Of a DNA stretch of 64,000 bases, positions 5,225 to 61,298 are shown one piece after another; the stretch's first letter is position 1; each line of letters begins with the position of its first letter. The DNA lies in NCBI GenBank assembly GCA_038043465.1, contig JBBTBX010000001.1:30686-94685 (forward strand). The letters run 5' to 3'. Both the position numbers and the translations under genes were made by a program. Source of the DNA: Pseudomonadota bacterium (GTDB taxonomy: Bacteria > Pseudomonadota > Alphaproteobacteria > Rickettsiales > SXRF01). Under the pieces are notes generated by a model. It saw only the letters and a program-made list of their open reading frames with translations. It did no database searches and had not been told where the DNA came from.

Positions 5225-5226
5225 TG

Positions 5227-33418: not shown

Positions 33419-33433
33419 AGAAGGGGAGAAGTT

Positions 33434-43422: not shown

Positions 43423-45129
43423 ATGAATACCACCGGCACTGCCCGCCTTGAAAAAATACTGAATAGTTTGCGCCCTGTATGGCTTTCAGTGTGCGTAAAT
43501 AGTTTTTTCATCAACCTGCTAATCTTGCCTGTTTCTTTATATTCCTTACAGGTATTGGATCGGGTACTGAGTACCGGCAGCTTAGCAACATTATTATGGC
43601 TTACAGTAATCATGCTGGCTATGTTTGCGGCGGCAGGGTTATTGCAGACACTGCGTAGCATGGTGTTACAGAAAGCCGCTGACTGGTTGCATGATTCCAT
43701 CATCGAAGTAGTACTCCCTCTGGTTCTGGCGCAAACGGCAGCAGGTGGCAGAGGAGCGCAACATTTGCGTGATGCATCGACTATCAAACAATTCATAGGT
43801 GGCAATGGGCTGGTCACTCTAATGGATACGCCGTGGTCAATCTTATATATAGCCGCCTTATTCATCGTGCATTGGTCACTCGGTTTGCTGGTAGTGGCAG
43901 GTGCAGCATTGCTTTTGCTGATGGCATGGCTGAATGAAACATCAATGCGCCGTCCCAGCCAGGAAGCGGGTGCAAGGCAATTACGCGCCATGCAGGAGCT
44001 GGAACTGGCAACACGCAACGCCGAAGTAACGCAGGCGATGGGCATGGTTACAGCACTTTCTGCCCGCTGGAAGGCAATGCAGAAAACCACAGGCGAATTA
44101 CAGTTGACAGCCGGAAACCGCGCTGCAGTTATTCAGGGTGGAACTAAATTCCTGCGACTTTCCCTGCAGATATTTGTCACTTGCGCTTCCGCATGGCTGG
44201 CAATTTATGGCCATGTAACCACTGGAGCTATTATTGCTGCTTCAATCCTTGCCAGCCGCGCCCTCGCTCCGTTTGAGGCAGCCATTGCCAGCTGGAAAAG
44301 TTTTACCGAAACCCGCACGTCTTACTCACGGCTTAAAAAAGCTTTCACTGATGAACTGCAGAACGAAGAATCAATGAAATTGCCTGCTGCTGTTGGCGCA
44401 ATTGCTGTGGAAAATGTAACTTACAGCACAGAAGGTAGAGAAGAGCCGATACTTAAAAACATAAATTTTGGTCTGAATGCCGGAGAAATTTTAGGTATTG
44501 TTGGTCCAAGTGGTTCCGGAAAATCCACTCTGGCGCGGGTAATAATGGGCGTATGGCAGGCGGAAAAAGGGGTGGTGCGATTGGATGGTGCAGATATACG
44601 CCAAATAGCGCGCACAGAGTTTGGCAAATCAGTTGGATATCTACCGCAAGATGTTGAATTATTCAGTGGAACAATAAAAGAGAATATATCACGCTTTAAC
44701 TCTGATGCTACGCCGGAAGCAGTGGTGCAGGCTGCCAATATGGCTAGTGCGCATGAGTTGATTCTGCGCCTGCCTAAAGGCTATGATACGGAAATTGGTC
44801 AAGGTGGCGCGGTACTATCTGCCGGGCAACGCCAGAGAATTGGACTTGCCAGAGCGTTTTATGGCGATCCTAAGCTACTCATGCTTGACGAGCCGGATGC
44901 CAGCCTTGATGACGTTGGACAACAGGCATTGATTGCGGCACTCTATCTTGCCAAACAACGAAAAATAACCACGCTGCTTATAACTCACCGTAATAGCCTT
45001 CTGGAGCATGTTGACAAGCTTCTGGTGCTGCGCGATGGAAGGCTGGAAACATTCGGAGCAATTTCCGAGGTAATGGCATTGTATAATAAGGCAAGAGCGC
45101 AAACAATCCCGGTTAAAGGCAATCCATGA
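43423..45129 (+). CDS. Type I secretion ABC permease/ATPase (PrtD/HasD-like, no C39 domain)
   Basis: 568 aa; N-terminal 6-TM domain, Walker A GPSGSGKST, signature LSAGQRQRI, Walker B LLMLDEP. Confidence 0.9.
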   Translation: MNTTGTARLEKILNSLRPVWLSVCVNSFFINLLILPVSLYSLQVLDRVLSTGSLATLLWLTVIMLAMFAAAGLLQTLRSMVLQKAADWLHDSIIEVVLPLVLAQTAAGGRGAQHLRDASTIKQFIGGNGLVTLMDTPWSILYIAALFIVHWSLGLLVVAGAALLLLMAWLNETSMRRPSQEAGARQLRAMQELELATRNAEVTQAMGMVTALSARWKAMQKTTGELQLTAGNRAAVIQGGTKFLRLSLQIFVTCASAWLAIYGHVTTGAIIAASILASRALAPFEAAIASWKSFTETRTSYSRLKKAFTDELQNEESMKLPAAVGAIAVENVTYSTEGREEPILKNINFGLNAGEILGIVGPSGSGKSTLARVIMGVWQAEKGVVRLDGADIRQIARTEFGKSVGYLPQDVELFSGTIKENISRFNSDATPEAVVQAANMASAHELILRLPKGYDTEIGQGGAVLSAGQRQRIGLARAFYGDPKLLMLDEPDASLDDVGQQALIAALYLAKQRKITTLLITHRNSLLEHVDKLLVLRDGRLETFGAISEVMALYNKARAQTIPVKGNP

Positions 45130-46559
45130 ATATAAGCATCCCAAGAATCAGAACTTTGTTGGAAAAACTGGAAGGACATCCGCGCCTTGCCCGAGCAGTG
45201 GAGGCAATCGACAATTTTGTACAACTACTCAGTAATAAAGATTATAAGGGAAATAATTCTGCCATTGCCAGCGCGCATGCCCCTATGCGTGCCACTGCGC
45301 TAGTAATAACTGCTATTACCTTTATCACCATAGTTTTTGGTATGATAGTTCCTATTGAAAGTGCCGCCATTGCGCATGGCAACGTAGCTGTAATAACCAA
45401 ACGCAAAACCGTGCAGCATCTGGAAGGTGGAATTATCAAAAATATCCTGGTGGAGGAGGGGCAGCTGGTTAAGAAAGATCAGCCACTCGTAGAAATCAGC
45501 GATGTTGCTCCCAAAGCCAACCGTGAAATAGTCCAGAGTGAATTATGGGCGATGCGTGCGTCAGAAACGCGTATACAGGCATTGCAAAGCAGTACGGCAG
45601 AATTAAAGTTTCCAGATGAATTAGAAGAAGCGGCAAAAAATCAGGAATCCCTGCAAAAAGCAATGCGCTCGCAAGCAGAATTATTTACCACCCAGAATGA
45701 CAGCCATCTTGGCAAGCTTGATTCATTGTGGCAGCGCATATCAGGAATAAAAGAAGAAATAATCGGGCTTACAGCACAAAAGAAAAGCGCGCATGGTCAG
45801 CTTGCCTTGATTATCGAGGAAACAAATTCAGTAAAAGAATTATATAAGGACGGCATGGCAACCAAGCCACGCCTGCTTGAGCTGCAACGTAAAGCTGAGG
45901 AATTAAAAGGCAATATCGGTCAATACGGTGCGCAGATTGCCAAGGCTGAACAAAGCATAACCGAAAGCCAGATGGATGTAATCAACCTGGAAAATGATTT
46001 TGCCGGTAAACTTGCCGAAGAGCTGCGTGATGTCCGCTCTAAAATTAATGATTATGATGAAAAACTGCGCGCTGCCACTGACGTTATGACGCGCACGGTA
46101 ATCATCTCCCCGTCAGAAGGTATCGTAACCGGTCTTAAACACCACACTATAGGCGGTGTGATAGCTGCCGGAGCACCGATAATGGACATTACTCCGCAAG
46201 GTGACAAGCTGGTAGCGGAAGTGCATGTACAGCCTACTGATATTGACGTTGTTGAAGCTGGAATGCAGGCGCGCATCGTGCTTTCGGCGTATAAATCACG
46301 CAGGATGCCAATTCTTACCGGAAAAGTAACGCAGGTATCGGCTGACGCTTTCAATGAACAACAAGGTATACAAACCGTATCATATTACACCGCAAGGGTT
46401 GAGGTAGATGCGAAAGAATTAGCTGCCCTCGATAGTGCCGTAAAACTGTCACCGGGAATGCCTCTGGAAGTATATATTAATACCGGTTCGCGTTCATTCT
46501 TTTCTTACATGCTGGCACCGATTACCGACAGTTTGAACAAGGCCTTCAAGGAAGATTAA
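45126..46559 (+). CDS. Type I secretion membrane fusion protein (HlyD family)
   Basis: 4-nt overlap with the ABC gene; single TM, long coiled coil, and C-terminus Y.ARV......L.PGMP.EV.I.TG.RS...Y. Confidence 0.9.
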   Translation: MNISIPRIRTLLEKLEGHPRLARAVEAIDNFVQLLSNKDYKGNNSAIASAHAPMRATALVITAITFITIVFGMIVPIESAAIAHGNVAVITKRKTVQHLEGGIIKNILVEEGQLVKKDQPLVEISDVAPKANREIVQSELWAMRASETRIQALQSSTAELKFPDELEEAAKNQESLQKAMRSQAELFTTQNDSHLGKLDSLWQRISGIKEEIIGLTAQKKSAHGQLALIIEETNSVKELYKDGMATKPRLLELQRKAEELKGNIGQYGAQIAKAEQSITESQMDVINLENDFAGKLAEELRDVRSKINDYDEKLRAATDVMTRTVIISPSEGIVTGLKHHTIGGVIAAGAPIMDITPQGDKLVAEVHVQPTDIDVVEAGMQARIVLSAYKSRRMPILTGKVTQVSADAFNEQQGIQTVSYYTARVEVDAKELAALDSAVKLSPGMPLEVYINTGSRSFFSYMLAPITDSLNKAFKED

Positions 46560-46767
46560 GGGAAAGTTTTATAAACTCCTCAGAATTATAGCTATGGCGT
46601 GGCTTACGCCAGATCTTTTAATCCCGACTTTTGTCGGGATAAAAAATATTTTCTAATTATGCTAGACCAGTGGCATCATGAGTAGTAACTTCTCTACTTG
46701 TTTTATTTAGGGCTTTCATCAATTCGTTGATGACAGCGGGGTTTAAACGGTTCAAGCGGAGAAAATT

Positions 46768-47574
46768 ATGCAGGATTTTTCTTATTTACATAAAGGCGGT
46801 TTCGCTATGTATATGCTGATGGCTATGTCAGTTTATGCTATTGCTGTGATTGCTTTTAAGATATGGCAATTTAAGAAATCCAACGTGTTTGACCGTAGTT
46901 TCATTGAGCCGGTACTGCGCGATATTAAGCAGGGTGACCGCACCCAGGCAACCAAAACCTTGGAGACTATCCGTGGGCCGGTGGCGCGGATCATGCGTGT
47001 GACTTTTGAGTGTGTGGCAAACCGCGAAATGTCGCAAAAAAGCAAAGAGGCGGAAATTACCCGCGTTGGCTCGGCGGATATACGCTATCTTGAATCACAT
47101 CTGCGCGGGCTGGAAATGACTGCTATGATCGCGCCGCTGATGGGGCTGCTCGGAACTGTGGTCGGGATGATAAATTCCTTCTCCAAATTAAGCTCGGCAG
47201 GAACGAGAGTTGATCCATCTATCCTTGCCGGCGGAATCTGGGAGGCTCTGCTTACCACTGCCGGCGGTCTTTCAGTTGCGATTCCGGCACTGGGAGCGCA
47301 CTATATTCTGGACGGGGTGATAGAGAAAATGCGGGCGACGATGAAGGATGTTTCGGTGCAGATTCTCTCACTTGAAGATGAATTCCGCAAGAATGAAAGG
47401 CTGCTTGCCATTGACCAGGCAAGGAAAGCTGAAGAAACTCGATTGAAACGTGAAGAAGAAACAAGGAAGCAGCGGGTTCAGTCTGATGCTGCCGCTGAAG
47501 AGCAACAGAAAACTGCACCTAAAAAAATGTCTACTTTGCATCTTCTGAGTCCTAAATATTCGGGGGGGAGTTAG
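46768..47574 (+). CDS. exbB: MotA/TolQ/ExbB proton-channel family protein with charged C-terminal extension
   Basis: Three TM helices and GLLGTVVGMINSF / ALLTTAGGL motifs. Confidence 0.85.
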   Translation: MQDFSYLHKGGFAMYMLMAMSVYAIAVIAFKIWQFKKSNVFDRSFIEPVLRDIKQGDRTQATKTLETIRGPVARIMRVTFECVANREMSQKSKEAEITRVGSADIRYLESHLRGLEMTAMIAPLMGLLGTVVGMINSFSKLSSAGTRVDPSILAGGIWEALLTTAGGLSVAIPALGAHYILDGVIEKMRATMKDVSVQILSLEDEFRKNERLLAIDQARKAEETRLKREEETRKQRVQSDAAAEEQQKTAPKKMSTLHLLSPKYSGGS

Positions 47575-47630
47575 TAGGGATTCGGGGTTCGGGATTAGGG
47601 GTTCGTAGTTCGTAATTCGTATTACCCCTC
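47575..47630. repeat. Heptad word array after exbB
   Basis: gattcgg ggttcgg gattagg ggttcgt agttcgt aattcgt att, period 7. Confidence 0.8.
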
Positions 47631-47670
47631 ACCAAGAAAGATGATGATAAATGAATTGAGAGTTTAGTTT

Positions 47671-48129
47671 ATGGAATATGAACGCAATCTGGAATTTGGA
47701 CGGACATCGCGCAGGGTTTTGAACTTGCCGCTGATACCGCTTATCGATGTTGTATTTATTCTGATTATTTTCTTTATGCTCACTACTTCGTTTATGCGGA
47801 TTGAATCGCTGGAGCTGATGTTGCCATCTGTAGGTAAAGCGGCATCGAAAAAAGAAGTCACGCATATTTTTGTCAAGGAGAATGGCGAGATTATTCTTGG
47901 CAAGCGCAATGTTGAGCCGGACGAGCTTAGCGAAGCACTGCTTCGGATATTTGCCGGTGATCCGACGGCTTCGATTATGCTGCTCTCGGCAGAAGGAGTT
48001 ACCATGCAGCAGCTCGTTGCAGTTATGGACAGAGTATCGGCGGCTGGCGGCAAGAGCTTGTTTGTGCGTAAATGGGTTCAGGACGAAGATAAACAATCGG
48101 ACGCGCCAGATGGCGACGCGCAGCAATAG
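47671..48129 (+). CDS. exbD: ExbD/TolR family protein 1
   Basis: LPLIPLIDVVFILIIFFMLT N-terminal TM helix and the ExbD fold length. Confidence 0.85.
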   Translation: MEYERNLEFGRTSRRVLNLPLIPLIDVVFILIIFFMLTTSFMRIESLELMLPSVGKAASKKEVTHIFVKENGEIILGKRNVEPDELSEALLRIFAGDPTASIMLLSAEGVTMQQLVAVMDRVSAAGGKSLFVRKWVQDEDKQSDAPDGDAQQ

Positions 48130-48139
48130 GAGATAGTTC

Positions 48140-48556
48140 ATGGATTTCCCCCGCACCCGCCGGAAAAAAATAGAAATTGGATTGATACCGCTGATTGACG
48201 TGTCCATGTTCCTGCTGATTTTTTTCATGGTTTCCGGAGTTGTTGAAAAAATTGACCTGATACCGATTGAACCGCCGGTTTCGCAGCATGGCAATATGAT
48301 GGATGAAGGGCATATTCTGGTGCTTCTGGGCAGCCATGATGAGATTATTGTAAATGATGAAATGGTAACCATGGAAGAAATGCAGAAGATGCTTACGCCG
48401 GAGCTTACAGCTAATCCCGCAAAAGTGGTGACGGTTAAGGCGGATGCTGTTGTTCCGGCTAACCGCATGATTGAAGTTATGGATGCGATTAAGGCAGCGG
48501 GCGGTCATCATCTTTCAATCCTTACCCAATCCATAGCGAAGGTTGATAAAAAATAA
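48140..48556 (+). CDS. exbD: ExbD/TolR family protein 2
   Basis: IGLIPLIDVSMFLLIFFMV; V.VKAD......MIEVMDAIKAAG. Confidence 0.85.
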   Translation: MDFPRTRRKKIEIGLIPLIDVSMFLLIFFMVSGVVEKIDLIPIEPPVSQHGNMMDEGHILVLLGSHDEIIVNDEMVTMEEMQKMLTPELTANPAKVVTVKADAVVPANRMIEVMDAIKAAGGHHLSILTQSIAKVDKK

Positions 48557-49321
48557 ATGCGTGCAACATTTAAAACCTCAACGCTGGAATATCTGAATTC
48601 TTCGCATTTTGCGCTGATGTGCGGGCTTGCCCTTGTGCTGCATATTATGACCGCGTTTGGCATCAGTATGATACCGCATATCAAGATTATTGATATTCCA
48701 GTGCATGCCATGAATATCCGCCTCGGTGACAGTGATGTTGAACAGGCTAAGCAAAATAAAGATGAAGTGGTTATGCCACAACCAACATCTGATAATTCGG
48801 AAATGTTGGAATCAGCCATGACCAAGCTTATCAGGAAGCCTCCGGAAAAAGCGGCAAAGCCGTCTCCGCCCAAACCTAAACCTCTACCGCTTGAAAAACC
48901 GCCGGTGCAGACTCCACCTGTGACTGAAAGAACTGATACGCCACGCCAGTTTGTGCGCGCAACCACACCTGATAAAATAGTTCCAGGAGTAGGTTCGGTT
49001 CTGGGAAACAGCGCGGATAGCAAGGCAGCAATCAAGATGAGTTATGAGCAGAAAATTTCCCTGTGGATCCAGAAATTCAAGCTATATCCTGAAAGTGCGC
49101 GGGCGCAGGGAATGCAGGGCAGCACAGTGGTGCGTATAAGGATTGATAGGCGTGGCAATATCCGTTACAGTGGGCTGGAAGGAAATACCGGATATGCAGA
49201 ACTGGATCGCGCTGCCCTTGATATGGTGCGGCGTGCCAACCCTGTTCCTGCCGTGCCGGAAGGCTATCCGGAAGGGGAGATGTTTGAGTTTCTAATTCCA
49301 GTGAATTTTGCAATAAAATAA
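48557..49321 (+). CDS. tonB: TonB family energy transducer
   Basis: N-terminal TM helix, Pro-rich KPSPPKPKPLPLEKPPVQTPP, and C-terminal YPESARAQGMQGSTVVRIRIDRRGNI...GYAELDRAALDMVRR. Confidence 0.8.
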   Translation: MRATFKTSTLEYLNSSHFALMCGLALVLHIMTAFGISMIPHIKIIDIPVHAMNIRLGDSDVEQAKQNKDEVVMPQPTSDNSEMLESAMTKLIRKPPEKAAKPSPPKPKPLPLEKPPVQTPPVTERTDTPRQFVRATTPDKIVPGVGSVLGNSADSKAAIKMSYEQKISLWIQKFKLYPESARAQGMQGSTVVRIRIDRRGNIRYSGLEGNTGYAELDRAALDMVRRANPVPAVPEGYPEGEMFEFLIPVNFAIK

Positions 49322-49436
49322 ATGAGTAGTTCGTAATTAGTAGTTCGTAATTAGTAGTTAGTAAGAATATTCTTTACGAGTTACTAATTACTAATTACGA
49401 ACTACTAATTACGATGTACGAACTACGAATTACGTA
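49322..49436. repeat. Long imperfect hairpin built from heptad words after tonB
   Basis: gagtagt tcgtaat tagtagt tcgtaat tagtagt tagtaag - aatatt - ctttacgagttactaattactaattacgaactactaattacg... Confidence 0.85.
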
Positions 49437-49458
49437 TTGGTGTTATGGAGATTAAATA

Positions 49459-51285
49459 ATGGGTTTGTGTAGTGTTATAATTGTTGCAAGTAAGGGCGAT
49501 GAGCTATTGTTCGCGACGATTGAAACCGTGCTTGCACAAAAACAACTTGGCGAACTGATAATTTTTGATAATGGAAACGCGCCTGATGTTGTTTCCCGGT
49601 TGCAGCAATATTCACTTTCCGAGGCAAGAATTAAAGTGATTACCATGCGTGGTGATGCCAATTTTGCTAAATGTTGTAACATTGCGGCAAGGCAGGCTAT
49701 CTCAGAATATCTGGTGATTTTTAAGAGCGGTTATCTTATTTCGCCGGACGGGTTGGCGGAGCTTGTCCAGGTGCTGGAAAATGAGAATAAAGCCATGCTC
49801 AGCAGTGGGGTGCTGGTCAATTATGATGGTAATATACATAATGTTTTCCGCAATAAAATAGTTACCCCGAAATCCACATTTTTTGACATTGTTTCGGTAC
49901 AGACCGGCAAATCAAAAAGTATCTTTGCTGAAGAAGCTATTGCTAAAAACCTGTCATTTGAAATGGCAACTGTTCCTAGTGCCTGCATGTGTATTCGTAC
50001 CAGTGATTATAAGAGGCTTGCTGGTCTTGATGAGGATTTCTTTACACAGGATGAAGAGGTGGATTTAAGCCTGCGCGTGCAGCAGGTGGGTGGCAGGGTC
50101 ATGTGCGTACCTGGAGTGAAAATTACCCGTTTGCCGGGGCCTAATGATAATAAAATCTCTATAGCGCGGCAGGCACATGAAGCGAGAAATACAATACGCT
50201 ACCTGAATAAATTTTTCTCGGCGCACCAGCCATTTGGAACGTTGTTTTTGTTGAACCTGCTTATTATGTTCCATTTATTTATAAAAATTCTTGGCAATGG
50301 TTTTGTCGAATTTTTTCAGGATATTAAACCGCATTATAATAATGATGCCGCGAAACGCCTGATGATCCTGGTGCTGGGGATTGTCGATCTGCCCAAAAAT
50401 GAAGAACTTGCCAAGAAGATTGTGTTGGTGACTGGTGCTGACAGCCAGATTGGGCTATGCGTCATCCGCCGTCTTATTGCTTCCGGGGCAGGGGTGCTTG
50501 CTATTGCCGGAGAGCATGAAATTCCCTATTATCACAATAATCTACGCTGGATGAAAAAAGATCTTTCCGACCCGAATTTAAACCTTGATGGTTATTGCGC
50601 GGATTTTGTGGTGCATTGCGCGCCACTATGGCAATTGCCGACGATGCTTCCAATGCTGCATAACGCTGAAGTAAAGCGGGTTATTGCTTTTGGCTCAACG
50701 CTGGTGTTTTCCAAGTCGCTTGCTGCCAATGATTATGAAAAAGATGTGGTAGCGAAGCTGCAAAGCGCGGAATTGCTGCTTGCTGAAAAATGCGCTGAAT
50801 TTAATATTACCCATACTATTTTCAGGCCGACGCAGATTTATGGGGTGGGTCTGGATTATGGCATAAGTTCTATTGCCAGAATCATAAGGCGTTTGGGGTT
50901 CATGATGGTTTATCCTCCGGCTTTTGGACGCAGGCAACCGGTGCATGTTGATGATTTGGCGGCGGCGGTGATGCAGAGTATCAAAAATGAAAACAGCTAT
51001 AATAAAAGCTATAATTTAAGTGGTGGTGAGGTGCTTATATACCGCGAGATGCTTGGCAAATTGTTTGCCCTTTATAAGAAAAAAACATGGGTAATAAACA
51101 GCACTGCCCTGCCATTTGCGCTGGATATTATTGGCAAAATCATGCGCAGGAAACATATTAATGGCGAAGTTGCCAGACGGATGAATGATGATCTGGTGTT
51201 TTTCCATGATGATGCTAAGTCCGATTTCGGCTATCACCCACGCACATTCCTGACTGGTGGGATGAAGGATATTGAGGGGTTTTAG
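49459..51285 (+). CDS. Fusion protein: N-terminal GT2 glycosyltransferase plus C-terminal NAD-dependent epimerase/dehydratase (SDR)
   Basis: CSVIIVASKG.. and DEDFF..DEEVDLSLR (GT2). Hydrophobic linker LFLLNLLIMFHLFIKIL. VLVTGADSQIGLCVIRRL Rossmann motif. Confidence 0.8.
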   Translation: MGLCSVIIVASKGDELLFATIETVLAQKQLGELIIFDNGNAPDVVSRLQQYSLSEARIKVITMRGDANFAKCCNIAARQAISEYLVIFKSGYLISPDGLAELVQVLENENKAMLSSGVLVNYDGNIHNVFRNKIVTPKSTFFDIVSVQTGKSKSIFAEEAIAKNLSFEMATVPSACMCIRTSDYKRLAGLDEDFFTQDEEVDLSLRVQQVGGRVMCVPGVKITRLPGPNDNKISIARQAHEARNTIRYLNKFFSAHQPFGTLFLLNLLIMFHLFIKILGNGFVEFFQDIKPHYNNDAAKRLMILVLGIVDLPKNEELAKKIVLVTGADSQIGLCVIRRLIASGAGVLAIAGEHEIPYYHNNLRWMKKDLSDPNLNLDGYCADFVVHCAPLWQLPTMLPMLHNAEVKRVIAFGSTLVFSKSLAANDYEKDVVAKLQSAELLLAEKCAEFNITHTIFRPTQIYGVGLDYGISSIARIIRRLGFMMVYPPAFGRRQPVHVDDLAAAVMQSIKNENSYNKSYNLSGGEVLIYREMLGKLFALYKKKTWVINSTALPFALDIIGKIMRRKHINGEVARRMNDDLVFFHDDAKSDFGYHPRTFLTGGMKDIEGF

Positions 51286-51303
51286 GGTTATGAGTGCTGA
51301 GTT

Positions 51304-51462
51304 ATGAGTGCTGAGTTTGAAGCTGAATTGTTAAAAACCAAAATCCGCTTAGGCTGTGAACAGCTTGATCGCGGAGAATACAGTAAACTATCCGTTCAGG
51401 ATGTGATGAAAAAAGCGAAGAAAATTCGTACGAAAAAAATACAGGCTTTCCCTTCAAGCTGA
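51304..51462 (+). pseudogene. ParD-type antitoxin C-terminal remnant, second locus
   Basis: MSAEFEAELLKTKIRLGCEQLDRGEYSKLSVQDVMKKAKK. Preceded by a duplicated atgagtgctgagtt word; no toxin gene follows. Confidence 0.3.
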
Positions 51463-51599
51463 GCAAGTTCTACCCGATATTTTTGTCCTTTATGCCTAAT
51501 ATTTTATAGAAAATCAGATTCAATTGTTGAAATATCTGCAATTTTGCATCAGAAACTAGATATTAAATCTAAATTCAAAGAATTTTGAGGTGATATAAA

Positions 51600-52469
51600 A
51601 TGGCGCGGATTGCTTATGTTAACGGCAGGTATGTGGATCACGCGCTGGCGAGCGTGCATATTGAAGATCGTGGCTATCAGTTTTCTGACGGGATATATGA
51701 ATATATCGCGTTTTATAACGGGAAATTGCTGGATGCGGATGCACATTTCAAACGTCTGGAGCGCAGCCTGAATGAGCTGGAGATTGGGTTTCCGGTGGCG
51801 GCTTCGGCACTGGGGATAATTGTCCGTGAACTAATCGAACGTAATGGGCGCGATGATGGTGGGCTGTATATTCAGGTTACGCGGGGGACGGCGAAGCGCG
51901 ACCATGTATTTCCCAAAAATGCGCGTCCGGCACTGGTGATGACGGTTTGCGGCGCGAAAACCCCAAAACCTCATGAATTTAGTGATGGGGTGAAAGTTAT
52001 TACCCAGCCTGATAGACGCTGGGCGAGGCGTGACATTAAATCTGTGTCGCTGCTGGCTAATATTTTAGCTAAACAGGAAGCGGCACGGCAAAAAGTGCGT
52101 GAAGCTTTGCTTATGGAAGCTGACGGAACGATCAACGAAGGATCAGCTTCCAATATGTTTATTGTGACAAAATCCGGTGTTTTGCTTACGCATCCGGCAG
52201 ATGAAAATATACTGGGCGGGATTACGCGCGATGTGGTTCTGAAGCTGGCGCGCAAGGTGGGAATTGAAGTTGAGGAGAGGGCGTTTAGTGTAGCTGAGGC
52301 AAAAAATGCGGCGGAAGCTTTTATAACCTCAACCAGCATTAATGTTCTGCCGGTGGTGAAGATTGATGACCGGCTGGTTGCGGGCGGCAAAGTTGGAGAA
52401 GTTACTAAGAAGCTGGGTGAGATTTATAACGCCCATATTTATAAGCAGACGGGGAAGGTTATGAGTTAA
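51600..52469 (+). CDS. dat: Class IV aminotransferase (D-amino-acid transaminase-like)
   Basis: VHIEDRGYQFSDGIYEYI..Y.G and the catalytic-region signatures of the fold-type IV family. Confidence 0.8.
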   Translation: MARIAYVNGRYVDHALASVHIEDRGYQFSDGIYEYIAFYNGKLLDADAHFKRLERSLNELEIGFPVAASALGIIVRELIERNGRDDGGLYIQVTRGTAKRDHVFPKNARPALVMTVCGAKTPKPHEFSDGVKVITQPDRRWARRDIKSVSLLANILAKQEAARQKVREALLMEADGTINEGSASNMFIVTKSGVLLTHPADENILGGITRDVVLKLARKVGIEVEERAFSVAEAKNAAEAFITSTSINVLPVVKIDDRLVAGGKVGEVTKKLGEIYNAHIYKQTGKVMS

Positions 52470-52486
52470 TCGTCATCCCTGACAAA

Positions 52487-53236
52487 CTATTTCAGATAAT
52501 ATAATATGCGGCAGGATATGGTGTCGCTATTGTTATAAACTCCGGCAGTGGAGCAGCTGTTCGCAATTATTGCCCCGCCGCTTTTTGCTGCGGTATCAAG
52601 CCCACGAAATTTTCCACTGGTAGGCACGCCATCATCTATTTTTTCATCTATTTGTCTTGTTCCAGTTGGGCTTATTGCTGGCGCAGCAAGGCTTCCGGAG
52701 GTGGCTAAATCAGAAAAGTTCAATGTATTGGCTTTTCTTGCCGTAACCTGATTATATAAATCGTCGTTATAGAAATAGCCGCATCTATCGTTGATGCCGT
52801 TAAATATTACAACACTATTCCAGCAAGGACTGACAATGGAAGCAGGAAGAAGTCCGGAAAGAGCGAGGGTTTTTATCGCCATAACGTTTTCGCATTGCCA
52901 CCATGCAGCTCCGCCATAGTCTATAATGCCATTGCCGTTACCGTTGCCGACACCATTGGTCATGGCGTTGCATGTGGTATAATTTGCGTAATCACCAAAA
53001 ATCTCGGTGGCATTCGGGCAGTCGCCAATGATACAGTTATATTTTGTGCGAAAGGTAAGAGCTGCTGTTTCAATCTGGGTAATCAGGGAAACTGCCGACC
53101 TGGTTTCTGCCGCTTTTATTAAATCGCGCCCGACCAGCACACCGCCGACCACCAGCCCGATAATAACCAGTACCAGGGAAAGTTCGATCAGGGTGAAGCC
53201 CGCGCGATTTTTATATGCTGTTGCAGTTTGGTTCAT
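52487..53236 (-). CDS. Prepilin-type N-terminal methylation-domain protein, paralogue 2
   Basis: KNRAGFTLIELSLVLVIIGLVVGGVLVG; FRTKYNCIIGDCPNAT; NGVGNGNGNGI. Confidence 0.75.
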   Translation of the reverse strand: MNQTATAYKNRAGFTLIELSLVLVIIGLVVGGVLVGRDLIKAAETRSAVSLITQIETAALTFRTKYNCIIGDCPNATEIFGDYANYTTCNAMTNGVGNGNGNGIIDYGGAAWWQCENVMAIKTLALSGLLPASIVSPCWNSVVIFNGINDRCGYFYNDDLYNQVTARKANTLNFSDLATSGSLAAPAISPTGTRQIDEKIDDGVPTSGKFRGLDTAAKSGGAIIANSCSTAGVYNNSDTISCRILYYLK

Positions 53237-53278
53237 TCTTGTTGTAATACTACAAAAATAATTTTTGAGGAATAATAA

Positions 53279-54007
53279 ATGTTTTCAGGTAAAATGAATA
53301 ATAATGAAAAGATCCCTCGGCAAGCTCGGGATGACATAAAATTACCCAAGCCGAGGGCGGTTATTTTTGACTGGGATAATACGCTGGTTAATACCTGGCC
53401 GATTATCCATGACGCGCTGAACAAGACATTCGCGGAATATGGCTTGGATTTGTGGGAATTTGAGCAGACTAAGGCGCGGGTGCGTAAATCGATGCGCGAC
53501 TCATTTCCGGAAATCTTCGGCGAAAACTGGCAGGCAGCGGGCGCAGCTTATCAGGCGCATTACCGTGCCAGCCATTTGAACAGGCTCGAGGCGTTGCCAC
53601 AGGCGCGTGAGGTTTTGGATATGGTTAGGAAGCTGGGGCTTTACAGCGTGGTGGTGAGTAATAAAAAAGGCGAGAATCTGCGCAAGGAAGCGGAGCATAT
53701 CGGCTGGACTAATTTATTTGATAATATCACAGGCGCGGATGACGCAGCGCGGGACAAACCCTTTGCTGATCCTGTGCTGCTGGCTCTGGCGGGAAGCGGT
53801 TTTGCGCCTGCACCTGATGTGTGGTTCATTGGTGATAGCGAAATTGACCTCGAATGCGCGAAAAATACTGGCTGCACCGCGATTTTATATGGCGATGATG
53901 CCACCGCGCATCCAGACTATAACGCAACCCATTATCAGGGATTTCCATATCATGCACATGTGGTAACGCATGGGGAGATGTTGGAGTTGTTGGGGAAAAG
54001 GGATTAG
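53279..54007 (+). CDS. HAD-superfamily hydrolase (phosphoglycolate-phosphatase-like)
   Basis: Motif I FDWDNTL, SNK, and motif IV GDSEIDLECA. The predicted N-terminal 20 codons run through a palindromic element. Confidence 0.8.
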   Translation: MFSGKMNNNEKIPRQARDDIKLPKPRAVIFDWDNTLVNTWPIIHDALNKTFAEYGLDLWEFEQTKARVRKSMRDSFPEIFGENWQAAGAAYQAHYRASHLNRLEALPQAREVLDMVRKLGLYSVVVSNKKGENLRKEAEHIGWTNLFDNITGADDAARDKPFADPVLLALAGSGFAPAPDVWFIGDSEIDLECAKNTGCTAILYGDDATAHPDYNATHYQGFPYHAHVVTHGEMLELLGKRD

Positions 54008-54097
54008 GCATTGGGGATTAGGCATTAGGGAAGGAGAAACTACATTATGCTAAATATTCAGGAGAGTAGGGAGGCTTTCTTGTGAGTTTTATTCTTG

Positions 54098-55498
54098 TTA
54101 TTTTCGACCATTTTCTTGGGTAGATTGTTGTGGAGAAGGTGTGCTAGGTGCGGGAATATTATCAGGTATTCTTTCAACGCAGCCATATTTAAGCATATGT
54201 ATATCAAAATTATAACGCATGATTTCGGCGCGAAACTGCAAGTGCGCAGCCAACCGTGGCGCGTTTAAGTTTTGACTTTCCAGCATCAGCTTGTGTTGCT
54301 CACTAGGATCCAGCTCTTTTTTCAATTTATCTAGTATTTTCTTATAATCATCTGGATTTTTTTGTAATTGCTTTGCTAAATCATTGTAATCATCAGCTGT
54401 TGTTAATCTTTTAATATCAGGGTGGCATTCACCATTAGGCAGGTAATAGTCTGCGCCGTTTTTGCTATTACCTTTTAAAATAGGAGATTTCTCATTTACA
54501 TCACGATTGTCAAAGGTAACAAAAGGAATTCCCAGCCGATCGTCTACATAACCTTTAGTTGTTTCGTAATCACTACTGCCAAAGTGCCCTCCCCCTCCAA
54601 GAATTATATATTTGCCACTGCGTGGCATTTCTTTGTGATCTTCAAGAATCCTTTCTGTCCATGTATAGTTAGTGCTTGCGGTCCTGTTGTTTCCAGCTCC
54701 ACCAGATTCAAAACCTCTGGCCGGGTCATCTTTATCAATATTTATAATGCGGATGCCATTTTCTTTGGCAGCTAAAAATAGGCGTAACTCATCGCCATAC
54801 CTGTCTATAGGCTCTTTAAACTTGTAAGAGCCAGGACCGCCCTTTTCATTTTCCTGCTTTATTACCTCTGGAGTTCTTTTCGCAAGCTCCTCTTTCAGAT
54901 CCTTTATTGACATATTACTTAATTTTGAGAAACCTGCGCTGTCAGCGTCAAAATAAATCGTGTCAACACCAGCCTTCTTTAAGTCGGTCATGTTATTTGA
55001 TACTAAGGGATAAGATGAACTGCTGTTATGGTAGTCACCAATAGCAATCCCAGGGTTTTTTGAAAGGAGGTCAACGAGTAATTCCTTCGGGGTGTTAGTG
55101 CTTGGAGCAATTGACGTATGCTTTGCTGGAGCGTCTTTTATATAATCCCTGCGGAAGATTTCATTTAAATCATCTGTATTATTTAATTCTTTCTTTGCGG
55201 AGGGATTTTCCTCATGCCATTTCTGAAGTTGTTTATTGGCTTTTTCCCTAATTTCATCAGCAGCCTCTTTCGGCATGACTCTTAGGTCATCATTTATTGG
55301 CTTCATGACCTTGTTGTATTCGTTCTCAGCACGGGTGAAGTCATCGGCGGTTATATGCTCGCCCTTTTTTGCTCGTTCTTTGATAGCGAGGTAGCTTTTC
55401 AGGAGCTTAATACGAGCGTCAGCAATATCATTTTCTATAGGATTGCCGACCACCCTTACTTCTGGAATCTCTAATATTTCTTCTGTTTCTTTAGCCAT
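54098..55498 (-). CDS. Hypothetical 466-aa protein, possibly ChaN/Tiki/erythromycin-esterase superfamily
   Basis: Clean long ORF. IAIGDYHN...LKKAGVDTIYFD and NRTASTNYTWTERI...KYIILGGGGHF resemble the paired GxxH motifs of that superfamily (recollection only). Confidence 0.6.
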   Translation of the reverse strand: MAKETEEILEIPEVRVVGNPIENDIADARIKLLKSYLAIKERAKKGEHITADDFTRAENEYNKVMKPINDDLRVMPKEAADEIREKANKQLQKWHEENPSAKKELNNTDDLNEIFRRDYIKDAPAKHTSIAPSTNTPKELLVDLLSKNPGIAIGDYHNSSSSYPLVSNNMTDLKKAGVDTIYFDADSAGFSKLSNMSIKDLKEELAKRTPEVIKQENEKGGPGSYKFKEPIDRYGDELRLFLAAKENGIRIINIDKDDPARGFESGGAGNNRTASTNYTWTERILEDHKEMPRSGKYIILGGGGHFGSSDYETTKGYVDDRLGIPFVTFDNRDVNEKSPILKGNSKNGADYYLPNGECHPDIKRLTTADDYNDLAKQLQKNPDDYKKILDKLKKELDPSEQHKLMLESQNLNAPRLAAHLQFRAEIMRYNFDIHMLKYGCVERIPDNIPAPSTPSPQQSTQENGRK

Positions 55499-55622
55499 TT
55501 AATTTGCCAAATATAATTGCAATTCTAAGAAGCCATAATACACCATAATGCACTTATTTTTTGTTACAATTTAATGAAATTTAATATTTTGGGGGAATAT
55601 GTAGTAAATATAAAGGGTTAGT

Positions 55623-55652
55623 TAGACCCCGCAACAAGTGCGGGGTGACAAG
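55623..55652. repeat. GACCCCGCA hairpin half element
   Basis: tagaccccgcaacaagtgcggggtgacaag; near-identical to 20328-20357. Confidence 0.85.
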
Positions 55653-55669
55653 ATTCAATAGGGATTATT

Positions 55670-57199
55670 TTACACCGTTTCCCGTTGCTTTCCCAGTTGC
55701 ATCTGGCGGTAGGAGAGGGCTTCGCTGATATGAGGGTGGGTCACGGTTTCGCTTTGCTCAAGGTCAGCGATGGTGCGGGCGACGCGTAGAACCCTTGTAT
55801 AGCCACGCATGGAAAGTTGCAGTTTCTCGGTGGCGTTTTCCAGAAGTTTGCGGCCTTTATCATCGGGAACTACAAAATTATGCAGGGCTTCGCCTTGTAG
55901 TTCCGCGTTGGTGCGCTCGCGCATTTTGAGCAGAGAAAAACGCAGTTTTTGTAGTTCGCGGGCTTTTGCGACGCGCTCTGCCACTGTCGTGCTTGCCTCA
56001 CCTTTATCACTTGTAAGCATGTCCAGTGTTGCGACTTCAGGAACGTCAATCGCCATGTCGAAACGGTCAAAAAGTGGCCCAGAAATTTTCCCTTGATATT
56101 CACCAGCGCAACGCGGGGCTTTGTTGCAGGCGCGGTTGGCATCGCTTAGATATCCGCAGCGGCAGGGATTCATCGCGGCTATTAATTGGAAGCGGGCAGG
56201 GTAGGTTACATGCGCGGCTGCGCGGGCGACGGAGACAGTTCCGGTTTCCAGTGGCTGGCGCAGCGATTCTAAAACCGCACGCGGAAATTCGGGAAGTTCA
56301 TCGAGGAATAATACGCCATTATGCGCCAATGAAATTTCGCCGGGCAGGGCGCGTTTGCCACCGCCAACCATTGCTGCCATTGATGCGCCGTGATGTGGGT
56401 CGCGGAAGGGACGCTCAGCTGATAATTTCCCGCCTTCGAGTTTTCCAGCGATGCTGTTTATGATGCTGACTTCGAGGATTTCATGTACGTCAAGTGGAGG
56501 AAGGATGGTGGGCAGGCAGGAGGCGAGCATAGATTTTCCGGCACCGGGTGGCCCGAGCATGAGCAGATTATGACCTCCGGCAGCAGCGACTTCTATGGCG
56601 CGCCTTGCGCTTTGCTGTCCGCGTATCTCGCGCATATCACGACCGCGCGGTTGCAGGATTTCGGTTCCGCGTTCCGGTTGTTGTAATATCTGCGTTCCTT
56701 TGAAATGATTGAGCAGGGCAGGCAGTGATGGGGCAGCGATAATGTCGCCAAGTCCTGACCAGGCTGCTTCTGAACCGCAGATTTTGGGGCAGATTAAACC
56801 GTTGCCCTGTGCCAGTGCCAGCATAGCAGCGGGCAGCGCGCCGGAAATGCCAAGCAGTCCACCATCTAATGATAATTCGCCAAGGGCTGTATAATTGGAA
56901 ACATCTTCTTCCTCGAGAACGCCCATGCTGATGAGGACGGCAAGAGCAATCGGCAGATCGTAATGGCTGCCTTCCTTCAAAATATCGGCGGGGGCGAGGT
57001 TGACGATGATGCGTTTTAGCGGTAGAGACAGGCCGAGCGCGTGGATGGCGGAGCGCACACGCTCACGTGATTCGGCAACGGCTTTGTCGGGCAGTCCAAC
57101 CACGGTGAAGACGGGCATTCCCGCCAGTATCTGCACCTGAACATCAATAGCTTTGGCTTCGATTCCGTCAAACGCTACTGTTGCTACGTGGGCTACCAT
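55670..57199 (-). CDS. YifB/ComM family Mg-chelatase-like AAA+ ATPase
   Basis: Lon-protease-like N-domain, Walker A GPPGAGKS, and GVLFLDELPEF. Confidence 0.9.
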   Translation of the reverse strand: MVAHVATVAFDGIEAKAIDVQVQILAGMPVFTVVGLPDKAVAESRERVRSAIHALGLSLPLKRIIVNLAPADILKEGSHYDLPIALAVLISMGVLEEEDVSNYTALGELSLDGGLLGISGALPAAMLALAQGNGLICPKICGSEAAWSGLGDIIAAPSLPALLNHFKGTQILQQPERGTEILQPRGRDMREIRGQQSARRAIEVAAAGGHNLLMLGPPGAGKSMLASCLPTILPPLDVHEILEVSIINSIAGKLEGGKLSAERPFRDPHHGASMAAMVGGGKRALPGEISLAHNGVLFLDELPEFPRAVLESLRQPLETGTVSVARAAAHVTYPARFQLIAAMNPCRCGYLSDANRACNKAPRCAGEYQGKISGPLFDRFDMAIDVPEVATLDMLTSDKGEASTTVAERVAKARELQKLRFSLLKMRERTNAELQGEALHNFVVPDDKGRKLLENATEKLQLSMRGYTRVLRVARTIADLEQSETVTHPHISEALSYRQMQLGKQRETV

Positions 57200-57203
57200 T
57201 GGT

Positions 57204-57309
57204 TATACTCTTCTCATTTCAAGAATTGGCGTTGTTAACCTTCGACTCGTGTAGTTTTTCTACACTTTGTCTCGGTTGTCTAGCCAATTCTTAAACTGCT
57301 TTGAGTATA
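57204..57309. repeat. 106-bp MITE-like palindromic element, copy B
   Basis: Differs from copy A (14140-14245) at only a few positions. Begins 5 nt upstream of the yifB start codon. Confidence 0.9.
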
Positions 57310-57410
57310 GTTCCTTATAATAAATCGTGGTAGACGTGGTAAAGGTGATAGTCGTGGTAAAGAATTATTATTACCACGTTTATCACGAATGCCACGCTTG
57401 CCACGAAAAA

Positions 57411-57977
57411 TTAACATCCCGCTCTCGCCAGCAAACGCATGGTTTCATAAAGTGGCAAGCCAACGACATTGGAATAGGAGCCGGAAATCCACGGGATGAA
57501 GGACTCAGCATAGCCCTGTATGCCATAGCCGCCGGCTTTGCCTTCCCATTCTTTGCTTGTGATATAATCAGCGATTTGTTTGTCGCTTAGGCGGTTCATT
57601 TTGAGCTGGGTGAGAGCGATGTCTTCATATTCCCTGCCATTTTTTATGATGCATATGGCAGTGTAAACACGGTGTCTGCGTCCGGATAAATGGCGAAGAC
57701 ACATCACCGCTGTTTTTGCATCTTCGGCTTTGGGGAAAATTCTTCTGCCACAGGCGACCACCGTATCGGCTGCTAGTATTAAATTTTGTGGATATTTTGC
57801 GGCAACGATGAGTGCTTTTTCCCGCGCCAATCTTGCTGCGTATTTTGCGGGTAATTCAGCTTTATGAGGAGTTTCGTCAATATCTGCTGCGACAACCTGC
57901 TGCGGCACTATTCCCACTTGCTTTAACAATTCCAAGCGGCGCGGTGAGGCTGAGGCGAGTATCAAATTATTTTTCAC
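57411..57977 (-). CDS. maf: Maf-family nucleoside triphosphate pyrophosphatase
   Basis: [16 protein letters not shown] and [10 protein letters not shown] motifs. Confidence 0.9.
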
Positions 57978-58185
57978 GGAATTTGATGCGTCCCTTGGTG
58001 AGGTCGTAAGGAGTCATCTCAACTATAACCTTATCGCCAGCGAGGACGCGGATGCGGTTTTTACGCATTTTGCCGGAAGTGTGGGCAATCACGATATGCC
58101 CGTTTTCCAGAGTCACGCGGAAGGTTGCATTGGGCAGCAACTCGGTGACATGTCCGGGGAATTCAAGTAGTTCTTCTTTAGCCAT
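57967..58185 (-). CDS. infA: Translation initiation factor IF-1
   Basis: [69 protein letters not shown]. Confidence 0.95.
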
Positions 58186-58196
58186 AAAATCCTTAA

Positions 58197-58294
58197 TAGT
58201 GAATGGTGGAGAGTGGTTGGTGGATTGTATATTATATCTACACACAAATTACAAACTGCAAATTACTAGTCACTAACCACTCTCCACTATTCAC
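58197..58294. repeat. Heptad word hairpin (24-bp imperfect stem, ~50-nt loop) between UPF0262 gene and infA
   Basis: tagtgaa tggtgga gagtggt tggtgga ... cactaaccactctccactattcac. Confidence 0.8.
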
Positions 58295-58758
58295 TTTATA
58301 TGCAATACGCAAATAAGAGTAAATAGCCGTCTAGCTGTCGGAAAATCAACGACAATCCGGTCTTTTAGTATTTCCTGCAGCATTTCCGAACCTTCGTTAT
58401 GCACGCCACGCCTGCCCATATCAATCGCTTCGATTTTGCTGGGGTTGGCTGAGGATATAGCCGCCTGATAGCTCTCGAAAATCATGAAATAATCACGGAT
58501 AATACCGCGCAAAGGGGCGACAGAAAGCACAACCTTGGAATATTTTTCTTCCTGTGGCGAATGCACGCCCATGATAAGCTTGCCGTCCTCAATGCCTAGC
58601 TCGACGTTGTATGGCCCGCTTTTCATGCAGCGTGGCTCGAAACAATTTTCATGCAGCAGATCGGCAATGGCTACGTCGCGCTCATGCTCCGCTTCCTTGG
58701 AGCGTTTTTTCATGCTGCTTTCATCAAGCATTATGTTGGCTATTCTTTCGGGCTTCAT
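58291..58758 (-). CDS. UPF0262 family protein
   Basis: EAEHERDVAIADLLHENCFEP and the position between hisD and infA, as I recall for alphaproteobacteria. Confidence 0.75.
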   Translation of the reverse strand: MKPERIANIMLDESSMKKRSKEAEHERDVAIADLLHENCFEPRCMKSGPYNVELGIEDGKLIMGVHSPQEEKYSKVVLSVAPLRGIIRDYFMIFESYQAAISSANPSKIEAIDMGRRGVHNEGSEMLQEILKDRIVVDFPTARRLFTLICVLHIK

Positions 58759-60732: not shown

Positions 60733-61023
60733 TTATTTAGGTCTATTTTCACGGCTATGCCAAACTCTAATGATAAATACCACAGTTGGGGAAGTCTGTA
60801 CATAACGGACAACATATGCCTGACGACCAAAAGGGATATAGAACTCACGCCAAGAGGGCATAGCGGAAATTTGCACGCCTATATTGGGAAAATCAGCAAT
60901 TTTTGTTATATTTTCCTTTATACTTTTAAGAGCCATCAAAGCAGCTTCGGGATTTTCGTTTTTCAGAAAATCATGAAGGCGCAACAAATCAGAGTGGGCA
61001 GCAGGCGACCAGAGAATTTTCAT
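60733..61023 (-). CDS. ParE/RelE-family toxin
   Basis: 96 aa; MKILWSPAAHSDLLRLHDFL...FPNIG...REFYIPFGRQAYVVRY......VVFIIRVWHSRE. Confidence 0.8.
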   Translation of the reverse strand: MKILWSPAAHSDLLRLHDFLKNENPEAALMALKSIKENITKIADFPNIGVQISAMPSWREFYIPFGRQAYVVRYVQTSPTVVFIIRVWHSRENRPK

Positions 61024-61298
61024 TTTGGAGATAAAGAAACCTGCTTATTAAGCGTGGCTATTTCACTATTTATCCATTTCATAGCTTCTTCGTTAGCTAC
61101 AGCATTCCCTGTTTCCAGATATTCCTGCAATCTTCGCTTATCTTCATCAAATTCATGCCTGAAGACATCGTCACGACGCAAAAAATCTTCAAGCGCAAGG
61201 AGCATCAAGCCATTTTCATCAGTACCATAATGCACTACCGCTTCATTAATTCTGGCGGAGAGAGCAGAATCCATAGTTATATTAAATTGATTAATCAT
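61020..61298 (-). CDS. Cognate antitoxin (family uncertain)
   Basis: 92 aa; 4-nt overlap with the toxin gene. Small acidic protein with a putative N-terminal DNA-binding part. Confidence 0.6.
   Translation of the reverse strand: MINQFNITMDSALSARINEAVVHYGTDENGLMLLALEDFLRRDDVFRHEFDEDKRRLQEYLETGNAVANEEAMKWINSEIATLNKQVSLSPK

Follow-up and report, generated by a model that had tools for sequence, protein, structure and literature searches.

What are the tandem seven-nucleotide words that stand hard against stop codons in an alphaproteobacterial genome, and do the long hairpins that some of them form serve a function? The question is raised by a 64-kb window (the whole stretch of DNA analysed here), which lies within a 98.7-kb contig of a groundwater metagenome from Hainich and whose host is uncultured and has ~45% GC. 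It is raised in particular by the spacer between a TonB-family gene (48557-49321, stop codon 49319-49321) and a gene for a GT2-epimerase fusion protein (49459-51285), which holds the following element:

49322-49438, unstranded: focal heptad hairpin, found with Tandem Repeats Finder (TRF), RNA folding and an inverted-repeat finder

An initial annotation had listed heptad arrays at 14 loci of the window and had proposed that they pair into hairpins after stop codons, where they might act as terminators or mRNA stabilisers and as all-frame translation barriers. Heptad arrays were confirmed at all 14 loci. The explanation that we favour, at about even confidence, is that they are heptanucleotide satellites evolving in situ, similar to the short tandemly repeated repetitive (STRR) sequences of cyanobacteria and filtered by translation signals, and that their paired form gives dispensable hairpins like those of repetitive extragenic palindromic (REP) sequences.

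Period-7 arrays in the intergenic spacers of the window

The material comprised the 64 kb of this one genome and ~130 kb from relatives, with crude gene calls made for the analysis and then corrected with the existing calls of the collection. The left arm of the focal hairpin (49325-49365) consists of about five heptads of TCGTAAT/TAGTAGT words and is followed by a short AT loop (~49366-49373) and by a longer right arm (49374-49438) of about nine heptads of the complementary words ATTACGA/ACTACTA, downstream of which lie a Shine-Dalgarno (SD) sequence, GGAG, and the GT2-epimerase start codon at 49459. TRF reported arrays of period 7/14/21 at 49321-49364 and 49374-49438, and TRF and sequence agree with the first description of 49322-49436 as TCGTAAT/TAGTAGT words plus complementary partner words. 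The inverted-repeat finder returned arms of 39 nt with 92% complementarity, and the RNA fold has a ~34-bp stem at -52.8 kcal/mol (z -8.9), a stability equalled by 0 of 200 dinucleotide shuffles.

Self-match of the intergenic DNA was raised at lags 7, 14, 21 and 28 (0.328 at lag 7 versus ~0.275 at neighbouring lags), while coding DNA gave 0.249 at lag 7 and a period-3 signal only. The window contained 11 strict lag-7 segments, 10 of them intergenic, versus 0-3 segments at the other lags from 4 to 12, and the concatenated spacers held eight, versus a mean of 0.13 in dinucleotide shuffles. Lag-7 density was 17.2 per 100 kb, 6.3x the 2.7 per 100 kb of a background set (365 kb of folE neighbourhoods on unrelated metagenome contigs), and other lags were alike in the two sets. 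The autocorrelation analysis suggested by the initial annotation therefore showed an excess, confined to spacers. The arrays are head-to-tail tandem 7-nt units (TRF period 7/14/21 at all loci) in many dispersed non-coding copies, namely 14 spacer loci, plus one in-frame copy in a coding sequence. Beside the focal hairpin these are:

1648-1668, minus strand: in-frame array GAATCCC x3 (21 nt) inside kdpA (TRF)
6108-6143, plus strand: single array TAGGGAT/TGGGGAT x5, G-quadruplex-capable, in a divergent spacer (TRF, lag-7)
8395-8434, unstranded: short convergent heptad pair between two convergent genes (z -2.65)
22143-22218, unstranded: heptad hairpin filling the entire folE-apaG spacer, stop to start (z -5.1)
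22608-22636, plus strand: single array GAGTTTT/GAGTGCT, with the apaG stop codon TGA within its first word (TRF)
30535-30633, unstranded: imperfect heptad hairpin of TAGTGGT/CAGTGGC words, flush with the fliS stop codon (z -2.6)
32538-32579, plus strand: single array TAAGGCA x3 plus variants, flush with the fliK stop codon (TRF, lag-7)
36494-36564, unstranded: heptad hairpin of CAGCGGT/CAGTGGT words with a 19-bp perfect core, flush with the flgE stop codon (-50.7 kcal/mol, z -10.3)
39541-39622, unstranded: convergent heptad arrays of weak complementarity (z -1.0)
47575-47621, plus strand: single composite array, TAGGGAT/TCGGGGT then TCGTAGT/TCGTAAT, flush with the exbB stop codon (TRF)
51286-51318, plus strand: single array GAGTTAT GAGTGCT x2, its 14-nt unit repeated at 100%, flush with the GT2-epimerase stop codon (TRF)
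53999-54031, plus strand: single array TAGGCAT/TGGGGAT supplying the TAG stop codon of a HAD hydrolase gene (TRF)
58197-58294, unstranded: heptad hairpin between the minus-strand genes for UPF0262 and infA, one arm overlapping the TGA stop codon of the UPF0262 gene (z -6.1)
63674-63768, unstranded: convergent heptad arrays of weak complementarity, from the stop codon of the upstream gene to the aroA start (z -0.2)

A common word skeleton

When each arm was read in its best phase and G-rich orientation, all 22 arms shared the skeleton T-M-G-K-R-R-T, with G at position 3 in 97% of the words and an information content of 5.27 bits, compared with 3.59 +/- 0.16 for arrays with permuted columns; 12 of the 13 arrays found in relatives fit it as well. 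Four word subfamilies recur (TCGTARN; YAGTGGT/TGGTGRT; TAGGGAT/TCGGGAT/TAGGCAT; GAGTKYT). Typical arrays alternate two words, their 14-nt units matching at 93-100% and their 7-nt units at 70-77%, and this higher-order pattern is the one expected of satellites growing by slippage or unequal exchange.

Of single words set beside described STRR, Nostoc and Xanthomonas units, GGGGATT is identical to the Nostoc unit, and GGGAATC lies one base from TCGGGAT. Across published heptamers, only GGGGATT, GGGAATC and GTGATTA fell within the top 7% of fits to the skeleton and the others did no better than random heptamers. A universal skeleton across phyla was rejected on this ground, as was the G-quadruplex as common denominator, four G-tracts being present only at 6108 and 47575 (2 of the 14 arrays).

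A factor that reads DNA or RNA in a 7-nt register (an RNA-binding protein, Rho exclusion or loading, G-quadruplex binders) could in principle use the heptads as reiterated sites of a regulatory boundary code. The near-invariant G, the conservation of the skeleton across loci and relatives and the strict position and polarity described below would fit such a factor, and the C-rich, G-poor 3' arms, always placed after a G-rich partner, may resemble Rho-loading RNA. In a Nostoc preprint, heptamer repeats are reported to have a regulatory influence on recO/recF reporters and a partner that binds them is postulated, and GGGGATT repeats have been published to form G-quadruplexes in vitro. We nevertheless hold such a factor to be improbable: few arrays have four G-tracts, words vary widely among loci, the heptamers of other phyla are mostly off the skeleton, arrays are dispensable between strains and no candidate protein was identified.

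Arrays abut stop codons with fixed polarity

Post-stop arms start between -9 and +4 nt from the stop codon at 14 of 14 loci (joint p ~1e-9 under uniform placement, computed on the eight spacers long enough to test), in line with the initial claim that the arrays sit directly at stop codons, and an array word includes the stop codon itself at 22611, 54007 and 58291. Polarity was equally regular. On the sense strand the 14 post-stop arms are without exception G/T-rich, all eight pre-start arms are the C/A-rich complement, and the G-rich arm is 5' in 13 of 13 hairpins on either strand (8 in the window, 5 in relatives). Single post-stop arrays of the window and relatives follow the rule in 10 of 11 cases. 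At 39541 the C-rich arm (in the sense of the minus-strand genes) adjoins a start codon at 39540, and the 6108 array is C-rich on the sense strand upstream of a minus-strand gene.

The skeleton can be read as TAG-TRR-T, two stop-like triplets plus one base, and the arithmetic by which 7-nt words place stops in all three frames is correct. Stops in all three frames occur within 45 nt of the annotated stop codon in 9 of the 14 array spacers versus 3.6 expected from mononucleotide shuffles (p 0.002), compared with 4 of 22 array-free spacers versus 4.0 expected, and in four genes a second in-frame stop immediately follows the first. These figures are what selection of the arrays as barriers against read-through or frameshifted ribosomes would give, but five arrays, of the TGGT, CAGTGGT and TCGGGAT types, lack all-frame stops, the TGGT/CAGTGGT-type arrays carrying few stops or none, so that a barrier cannot be the common function. 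Moreover, AT-rich spacers supply stops anyway, two to three words would suffice where arrays reach nine words and a partner arm, and the stop property is better seen as a tolerance filter (MacGregor 2015, PMC4679880). We regard selection for translation barriers as very improbable.

The in-frame kdpA array is consistent with stop content acting as a constraint on location: it stands in the stop-free orientation, its length is exactly 3 x 7 = 21 nt, and its product, part of LNPESRIP, lies in a loop that carries a 4-residue insertion when compared with KdpA of E. coli. TAG terminates 25 of the 64 called genes of the window (39%), a high share for a bacterium, and 8 of 14 genes next to arrays versus 17 of 50 elsewhere (p 0.13). 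Seeding of arrays by the stop codon through TAG enrichment at adjacent genes found no support beyond this trend.

Folding of the paired arrays

The 14 loci fall into four strong hairpins, two moderate ones, two weak convergent pairs and six single arrays. The proposal that the arrays pair into hairpins accordingly held in part: folding was strong at 22143, 36494, 49322 and 58197 (z -5.1 to -10.3) and moderate at 30535 and 8392, but no better than that of shuffles at 39541 and 63671 (z -1.0 and -0.2), and six arrays have no partner. The perfect 19-bp match noted earlier at 36494 was recovered. At 22143 the base of the stem pairs the folE stop region with the AUG of apaG, a gene preceded by no SD sequence.

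We considered whether the paired arrays are selected U-tract-less terminators or stabilisers of mRNA 3' ends, with the heptads as raw material, as the initial annotation had mainly suggested. Several features of the sequence speak for this: the hairpins have high stability (z -5 to -10) and follow genes immediately, gene-downstream spacers are more structured than divergent ones, and the G-rich-first polarity is the same on either strand, as one would expect of RNA hairpins that act in both directions. The hairpins are indeed without a U-tract; their tails carry no T-runs and none of them was among the terminator-like sites of a consensus terminator scan, and we reject canonical intrinsic terminators for these reasons. 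Six of the 14 arrays are partnerless and two pairs fold no better than shuffles. Several hairpins lie within likely operons, and at 22143 full termination is impossible because the hairpin fills the whole folE-apaG spacer. Strand-specific RNA selection, judged by G-U versus A-C, was tried as a candidate and proved uninformative, sense and antisense energies being about equal without a consistent asymmetry (sense favoured in 5 of 10). A covariance scan with Rfam 15 matched only a tRNA-Arg and a DUF3800-VIII sRNA, neither overlapping any array. Together with the turnover described in the next section, this leaves selected terminators or stabilisers possible but unlikely.

Array turnover among strains and species

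The relatives form a graded series from 98% to 56% identity. The search of genome contigs gave a single close genome, L004 ('MAG: Rickettsiales bacterium SF1_2_7', a metagenome-assembled genome at 96-98% nucleotide identity), and the broader taxonomic range was taken from protein homologues, those of the GT2-epimerase carrying Rickettsiales or Alphaproteobacteria labels. On these two grounds the alphaproteobacterial assignment of the host stands. The window contains flagellar, ExbBD-TonB and UPF0262 genes, and the host is not a heterocystous cyanobacterium, the host of STRR sequences in the strict sense. Metagenomes from groundwater, drinking water, biofilters and wastewater contain near-identical DNA.

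Among the closest strains array length was constant. L004 has an identical focal spacer and a 51286 array that differs by one single-nucleotide polymorphism (SNP), and a 12-kb contig of run X9 (2.2% diverged) crosses three arrays without gaps, with 0 gaps over 4.1 kb. No 7- or 14-nt insertion or deletion was found in arrays of the L004, X9 or X13 contigs, strains 2-4% diverged. Since the L004 and X9 arrays lack gaps, the arrays are not hypermutable, and we give next to no credence to the view that they are contingency loci for phase variation by 7-nt slippage. That view might be prompted by the presence of tandem repeats at gene boundaries, some of them beside surface or flagellar genes, but the constant lengths largely refute it, the arrays are degenerate and lie after stop codons, not in promoters or 5' coding regions, and the flanking genes are mostly housekeeping. 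Purifying selection was likewise rejected as a reading of the 100% identity of the L004 focal spacer, which lies inside a 343-nt SNP-free patch of a mosaic alignment and gives the terminator or stabiliser explanation no evidence of constraint.

Whole arrays, in contrast to their lengths, do turn over between close strains. In L004, X13 and X14 the exbB-exbD array (47575) is replaced, from the stop codon to the ribosome-binding site, by a palindrome resembling MITEs (miniature inverted-repeat transposable elements), and the focal left arm and loop (49323-49402) give way to 172 nt of different sequence in X19 and, as a minor variant, in X14. In the congener L014 (FolE 88% identical) the folE-apaG spacer is 8 nt long and has an SD sequence, versus the 76-nt hairpin of the window, and apaG ends in a TAA stop codon without an array. 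The hairpins are dispensable: an arm or an array is replaced in close strains and the spacer is near-absent in the congener.

The tonB-GT spacer could be followed further. In L011, L012 and L005 (81-83% protein identity) it still holds a heptad hairpin with a conserved loop. The hairpins of L011 and L012 have different words and copy numbers and matched changes in the two arms, as in TCGTACC/GGTACGA of L011, whereas most of the left arm in L005 has given way to a MITE, so that a hairpin remnant is left. At 56-73% identity, L006 and L013 have unrelated palindromic MITEs in this spacer, L008 has a small hairpin and L010 has none. The retention of a tonB-downstream hairpin with matched arm changes in the window, L011 and L012, and the recurrence of some large hairpin, built from differing elements, after tonB in six of eight relatives, argue for a selected terminator or stabiliser; the dispensability of the hairpins in close strains and the congener argues against one. 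In the comparison with relatives that the initial annotation had called for, presence, absence and replacement vary and copy number differs between species, with no copy-number difference among close strains.

We also weighed whether the arrays are small mobile or copied elements, MITE-like or akin to REP doublets forming hairpins (REPINs), or spread via recombination between arrays. Such spread would explain the shared skeleton and the recurrence of each of the four subfamilies at several loci, and the same composite junction, GGGAT-TCGTAGT-TCG, is shared by two different loci, 47575 of the window and 6345 of L008. Alleles with whole-spacer replacement exist, the neighbourhoods are rich in true MITEs inserted beside or inside arrays of relatives (L008 18617-18779, L011 996, L012 540), and other contigs of the same metagenomes match the hairpin arms at 80-90%. 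However, the arrays have no terminal inverted repeats or fixed-length units, and neither the window/L014 nor the window/L004 comparison gave target-site duplications, whole spacers being replaced. Word order, copy number and length differ at every locus, the folE-apaG hairpin, set against L014, is no clean insertion, and no associated transposase turned up, the Pfam scan having covered part of the open reading frames of the window and none having been specifically sought. Mobility of the arrays themselves is therefore quite unlikely in our judgement.

Synteny between the window and L004 ends near heptad arrays, beside 39541-39583 and 16 nt after 51286-51318 (L004 1-131 and 11859-11941 versus window 39541-39623 and 51335 onward). 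As an observation in its own right, this suggests rearrangement or insertion breakpoints at array-bearing spacers.

Other repeats and genes of the window

Several further repeats occur in the spacers. Between minus-strand genes and adjoining a MITE copy, 57326-57407 forms a hairpin of 9-nt periodic words (CGTGGTAGA/CGTGGTAAA..., then ...TTACCACG/TCACGAATGCCACG), a period-9 analogue of the heptad hairpins. Two copies of a 77-nt MITE-like palindromic element, differing by 3 substitutions, lie at 14156-14232 and 57220-57296, and elements related to it (AGAGCATTTTCCATTTAATCGTGCG...) occur many times in L008, often directly 3' of stop codons. A REP-like palindrome, CCTCTCCCGCAGGGGGAGAGG, lies in spacers at 12535-12555 and 33330-33350 (variant at 5186-5226) and also in L005, L010, L011 and L013, and a short palindromic repeat, GACCCCGCAAnAAnTGCGGGGTGACAAG, at 20331-20358 and 55625-55652 and also in spacers of L008 and L010. 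Upstream of the tRNA-Arg(CCT) gene (43183-43259), 43009-43110 holds a composite double palindrome (GTCATCCTGTG...CACAGGATCTG...GATCCTGCG...GCAGGATGAC) whose family supplies the alternative exbB-exbD spacer allele in L004, X13 and X14 and flanks a duplicated tRNA in L005. Two direct repeats may be protein-binding iterons, one of 26 nt x3 at 6269-6346 (CGCCTACGGCAATATTATTTGGAAAT) in a divergent promoter region and one of 16 nt x2.9 at 21420-21466 (GATGATAAGATTATTG) running into the folE start.

Among the genes, 24121-27603 and 33392-36493 encode an unusually large flagellin (1160 aa) and FlgE hook protein (1033 aa), with FliS, FliK and probably FlgD nearby. The Rfam match to the DUF3800-VIII sRNA (17466-17537; 48.9 bits, gathering threshold 40.2) overlaps the start of an open reading frame called at 17437-17826. 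A ParE toxin gene with a small antitoxin-like open reading frame upstream forms a toxin-antitoxin pair at 60733-61298, and relatives carry ParD/ParE and BrnT/CopG pairs in the matching neighbourhood.

Discussion

Heptad arrays outside cyanobacteria are not new, being known from Xanthomonas, Beggiatoaceae, Bacteroidetes and Geobacter. The closest precedents are the GGGAATC heptamers of Xanthomonas and GGGGA(C/T)T heptamers of Nostoc, genome-wide tandems with a non-coding bias whose G-rich strand lies <=50 bp after stop codons on the sense strand or before open reading frames on the antisense strand (Rehm et al. 2015, PMC4692102). That study found a deficit of heptamers between divergent genes and 70-75 convergent, stem-loop-capable pairs in Xanthomonas, an arrangement rare in Nostoc; the repeat type is kept while its length varies between species, and no function was found (PMC4692102). 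The arrays described here share the convergent pairs, the polarity, the post-stop location and the species-level variation in length, and the window words TGGGGAT/TAGGGAT and TCGGGAT are identical to those units or one base off. They differ in using many words on one skeleton in place of one dominant unit, in that most of them cannot form G-quadruplexes, in standing flush (0-4 nt) with the stop codon and in belonging to an alphaproteobacterial host of ~45% GC.

STRR sequences were reportedly described by Mazel and co-workers in 1990 from heterocystous cyanobacteria (Calothrix/Nostoc). They too are dispersed intergenic tandem heptanucleotides, with the CCCCAAT/GGGGATT unit in common with the window; they belong to another phylum, and their STRR2/3 units are off this skeleton. 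Small palindromic elements are said, after Elhai in 2008, to insert into STRR arrays, as palindromic elements do here in relatives.

The TAACTGA direct repeats of marine Beggiatoaceae, some cyanobacteria and Bacteroidetes, whose stop content has been discussed as a constraint on heptamer location, offer a second parallel (MacGregor 2015, PMC4679880). They likewise comprise two stop triplets plus one base, give all-frame stops in one orientation, stand hard against gene boundaries and often have no canonical SD sequence beside them. TAACTGA is, however, a single fixed word in direct repeats only, with no structure predicted, and its main place is immediately before start codons, in stop-rich orientation, the reverse of the polarity that pre-start arms have here. 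Heptamer repeats also occur in Geobacter and Beggiatoaceae, and heptamers are given as the most abundant class of long simple sequence repeats in many bacteria, with polymerase slippage as the proposed origin (Mrazek 2007, as cited by later papers).

Two structural comparisons remain. Like REP sequences, their bacterial interspersed mosaic elements (BIMEs) and REPINs, the heptad hairpins are abundant imperfect palindromes after genes and within operons, dispensable singly and variable between strains. In enterobacteria and pseudomonads such elements are transcribed and can shield upstream mRNA from 3' exonucleases. REP sequences differ in having a fixed family consensus and mobilisation by REP-associated tyrosine transposases (RAYTs), where the heptad hairpins have only a 7-nt skeleton and locus-specific arms. 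Intrinsic terminators share with them a stable hairpin shortly after a stop codon, but heptad stems are far longer (20-34 bp) and AT-rich, with often large loops and no U-tract, and some lie between genes that are probably co-transcribed.

From the anatomy, the statistics and the turnover, which are observed, we infer the steps that follow. The arrays would expand where they stand, through replication slippage or unequal exchange, up to the point where selected sequence begins, and such growth would leave them flush with stop codons. At a gene end only the stop-rich, C-poor orientation would survive, because abutting or replacing the stop codon in this orientation never extends the protein in any frame; near a start codon only the G-poor complement would survive, because it is without SD-like or start-like triplets. 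Such a filter on translation signals would result in convergent arrays. Long hairpins could then be built and homogenised by inverted duplication or by template switching from arm to arm, and this would produce matched arm changes even if selection played no part. In transcripts, the hairpins would act as REP-type extragenic palindromes do, as a generic, dispensable RNA structure in 3' untranslated regions and between cistrons, and may protect 3' ends or attenuate read-through. A stop-to-start hairpin may couple the translation of two genes: a ribosome terminating on folE would unmask the apaG start, because the stem pairs the stop region with the AUG and an SD sequence is missing. On this account the hairpins are probably not canonical terminators, and the all-frame stops are probably a by-product of the word skeleton.

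Several points weigh against this satellite explanation. Copy number does not vary among close strains, and growth was deduced, not observed; slippage alone leaves a skeleton shared by unrelated loci unexplained; and the polarity filter is an argument, not a test. The L008 array at 18617-18779 violates the sense-strand rule, and because all single arrays of the window are on the plus strand, gene direction and replication direction are inseparable there and a replication-strand effect may be at work. The large hairpins after tonB in relatives come from three unrelated element types, and a hairpin may be selected at that place. For the claims at the RNA level, the sole metatranscriptome sharing words with the region, X23, covers no array in 40000-59999.

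A bolder idea, in our view a long shot, is a directional gene-boundary code read by the expression machinery and common to this alphaproteobacterium, Xanthomonas and Nostoc. The G/U-rich arm, transcribed first, would sequester a C-rich, G-poor Rho-loading arm; single G-rich arrays would be harmless in sense and Rho-loading for antisense transcription; and stop-to-start hairpins would enforce translational coupling. If this were true, the arrays would be selected insulators, not junk.

Cyanobacterial heptanucleotide arrays have been on record since 1990, and those of Xanthomonas, Burkholderia, Geobacter and Beggiatoaceae followed in 2007-2015. The present case adds an independent, AT-richer alphaproteobacterial example, in which one skeleton unites a family of many words, the arrays stand strictly flush with stop codons, and gains, losses and replacements are documented across a series of relatives. 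For annotation, the arrays mark, and sometimes supply, true stop codons, and they explain genes that start without an SD sequence. The clean regularities turn "repeats near genes" into testable rules, be it a translation-signal filter, Rho shielding or stop-codon seeding, and the series of relatives, with MITE replacement at orthologous spacers, is a natural experiment on junk versus function.

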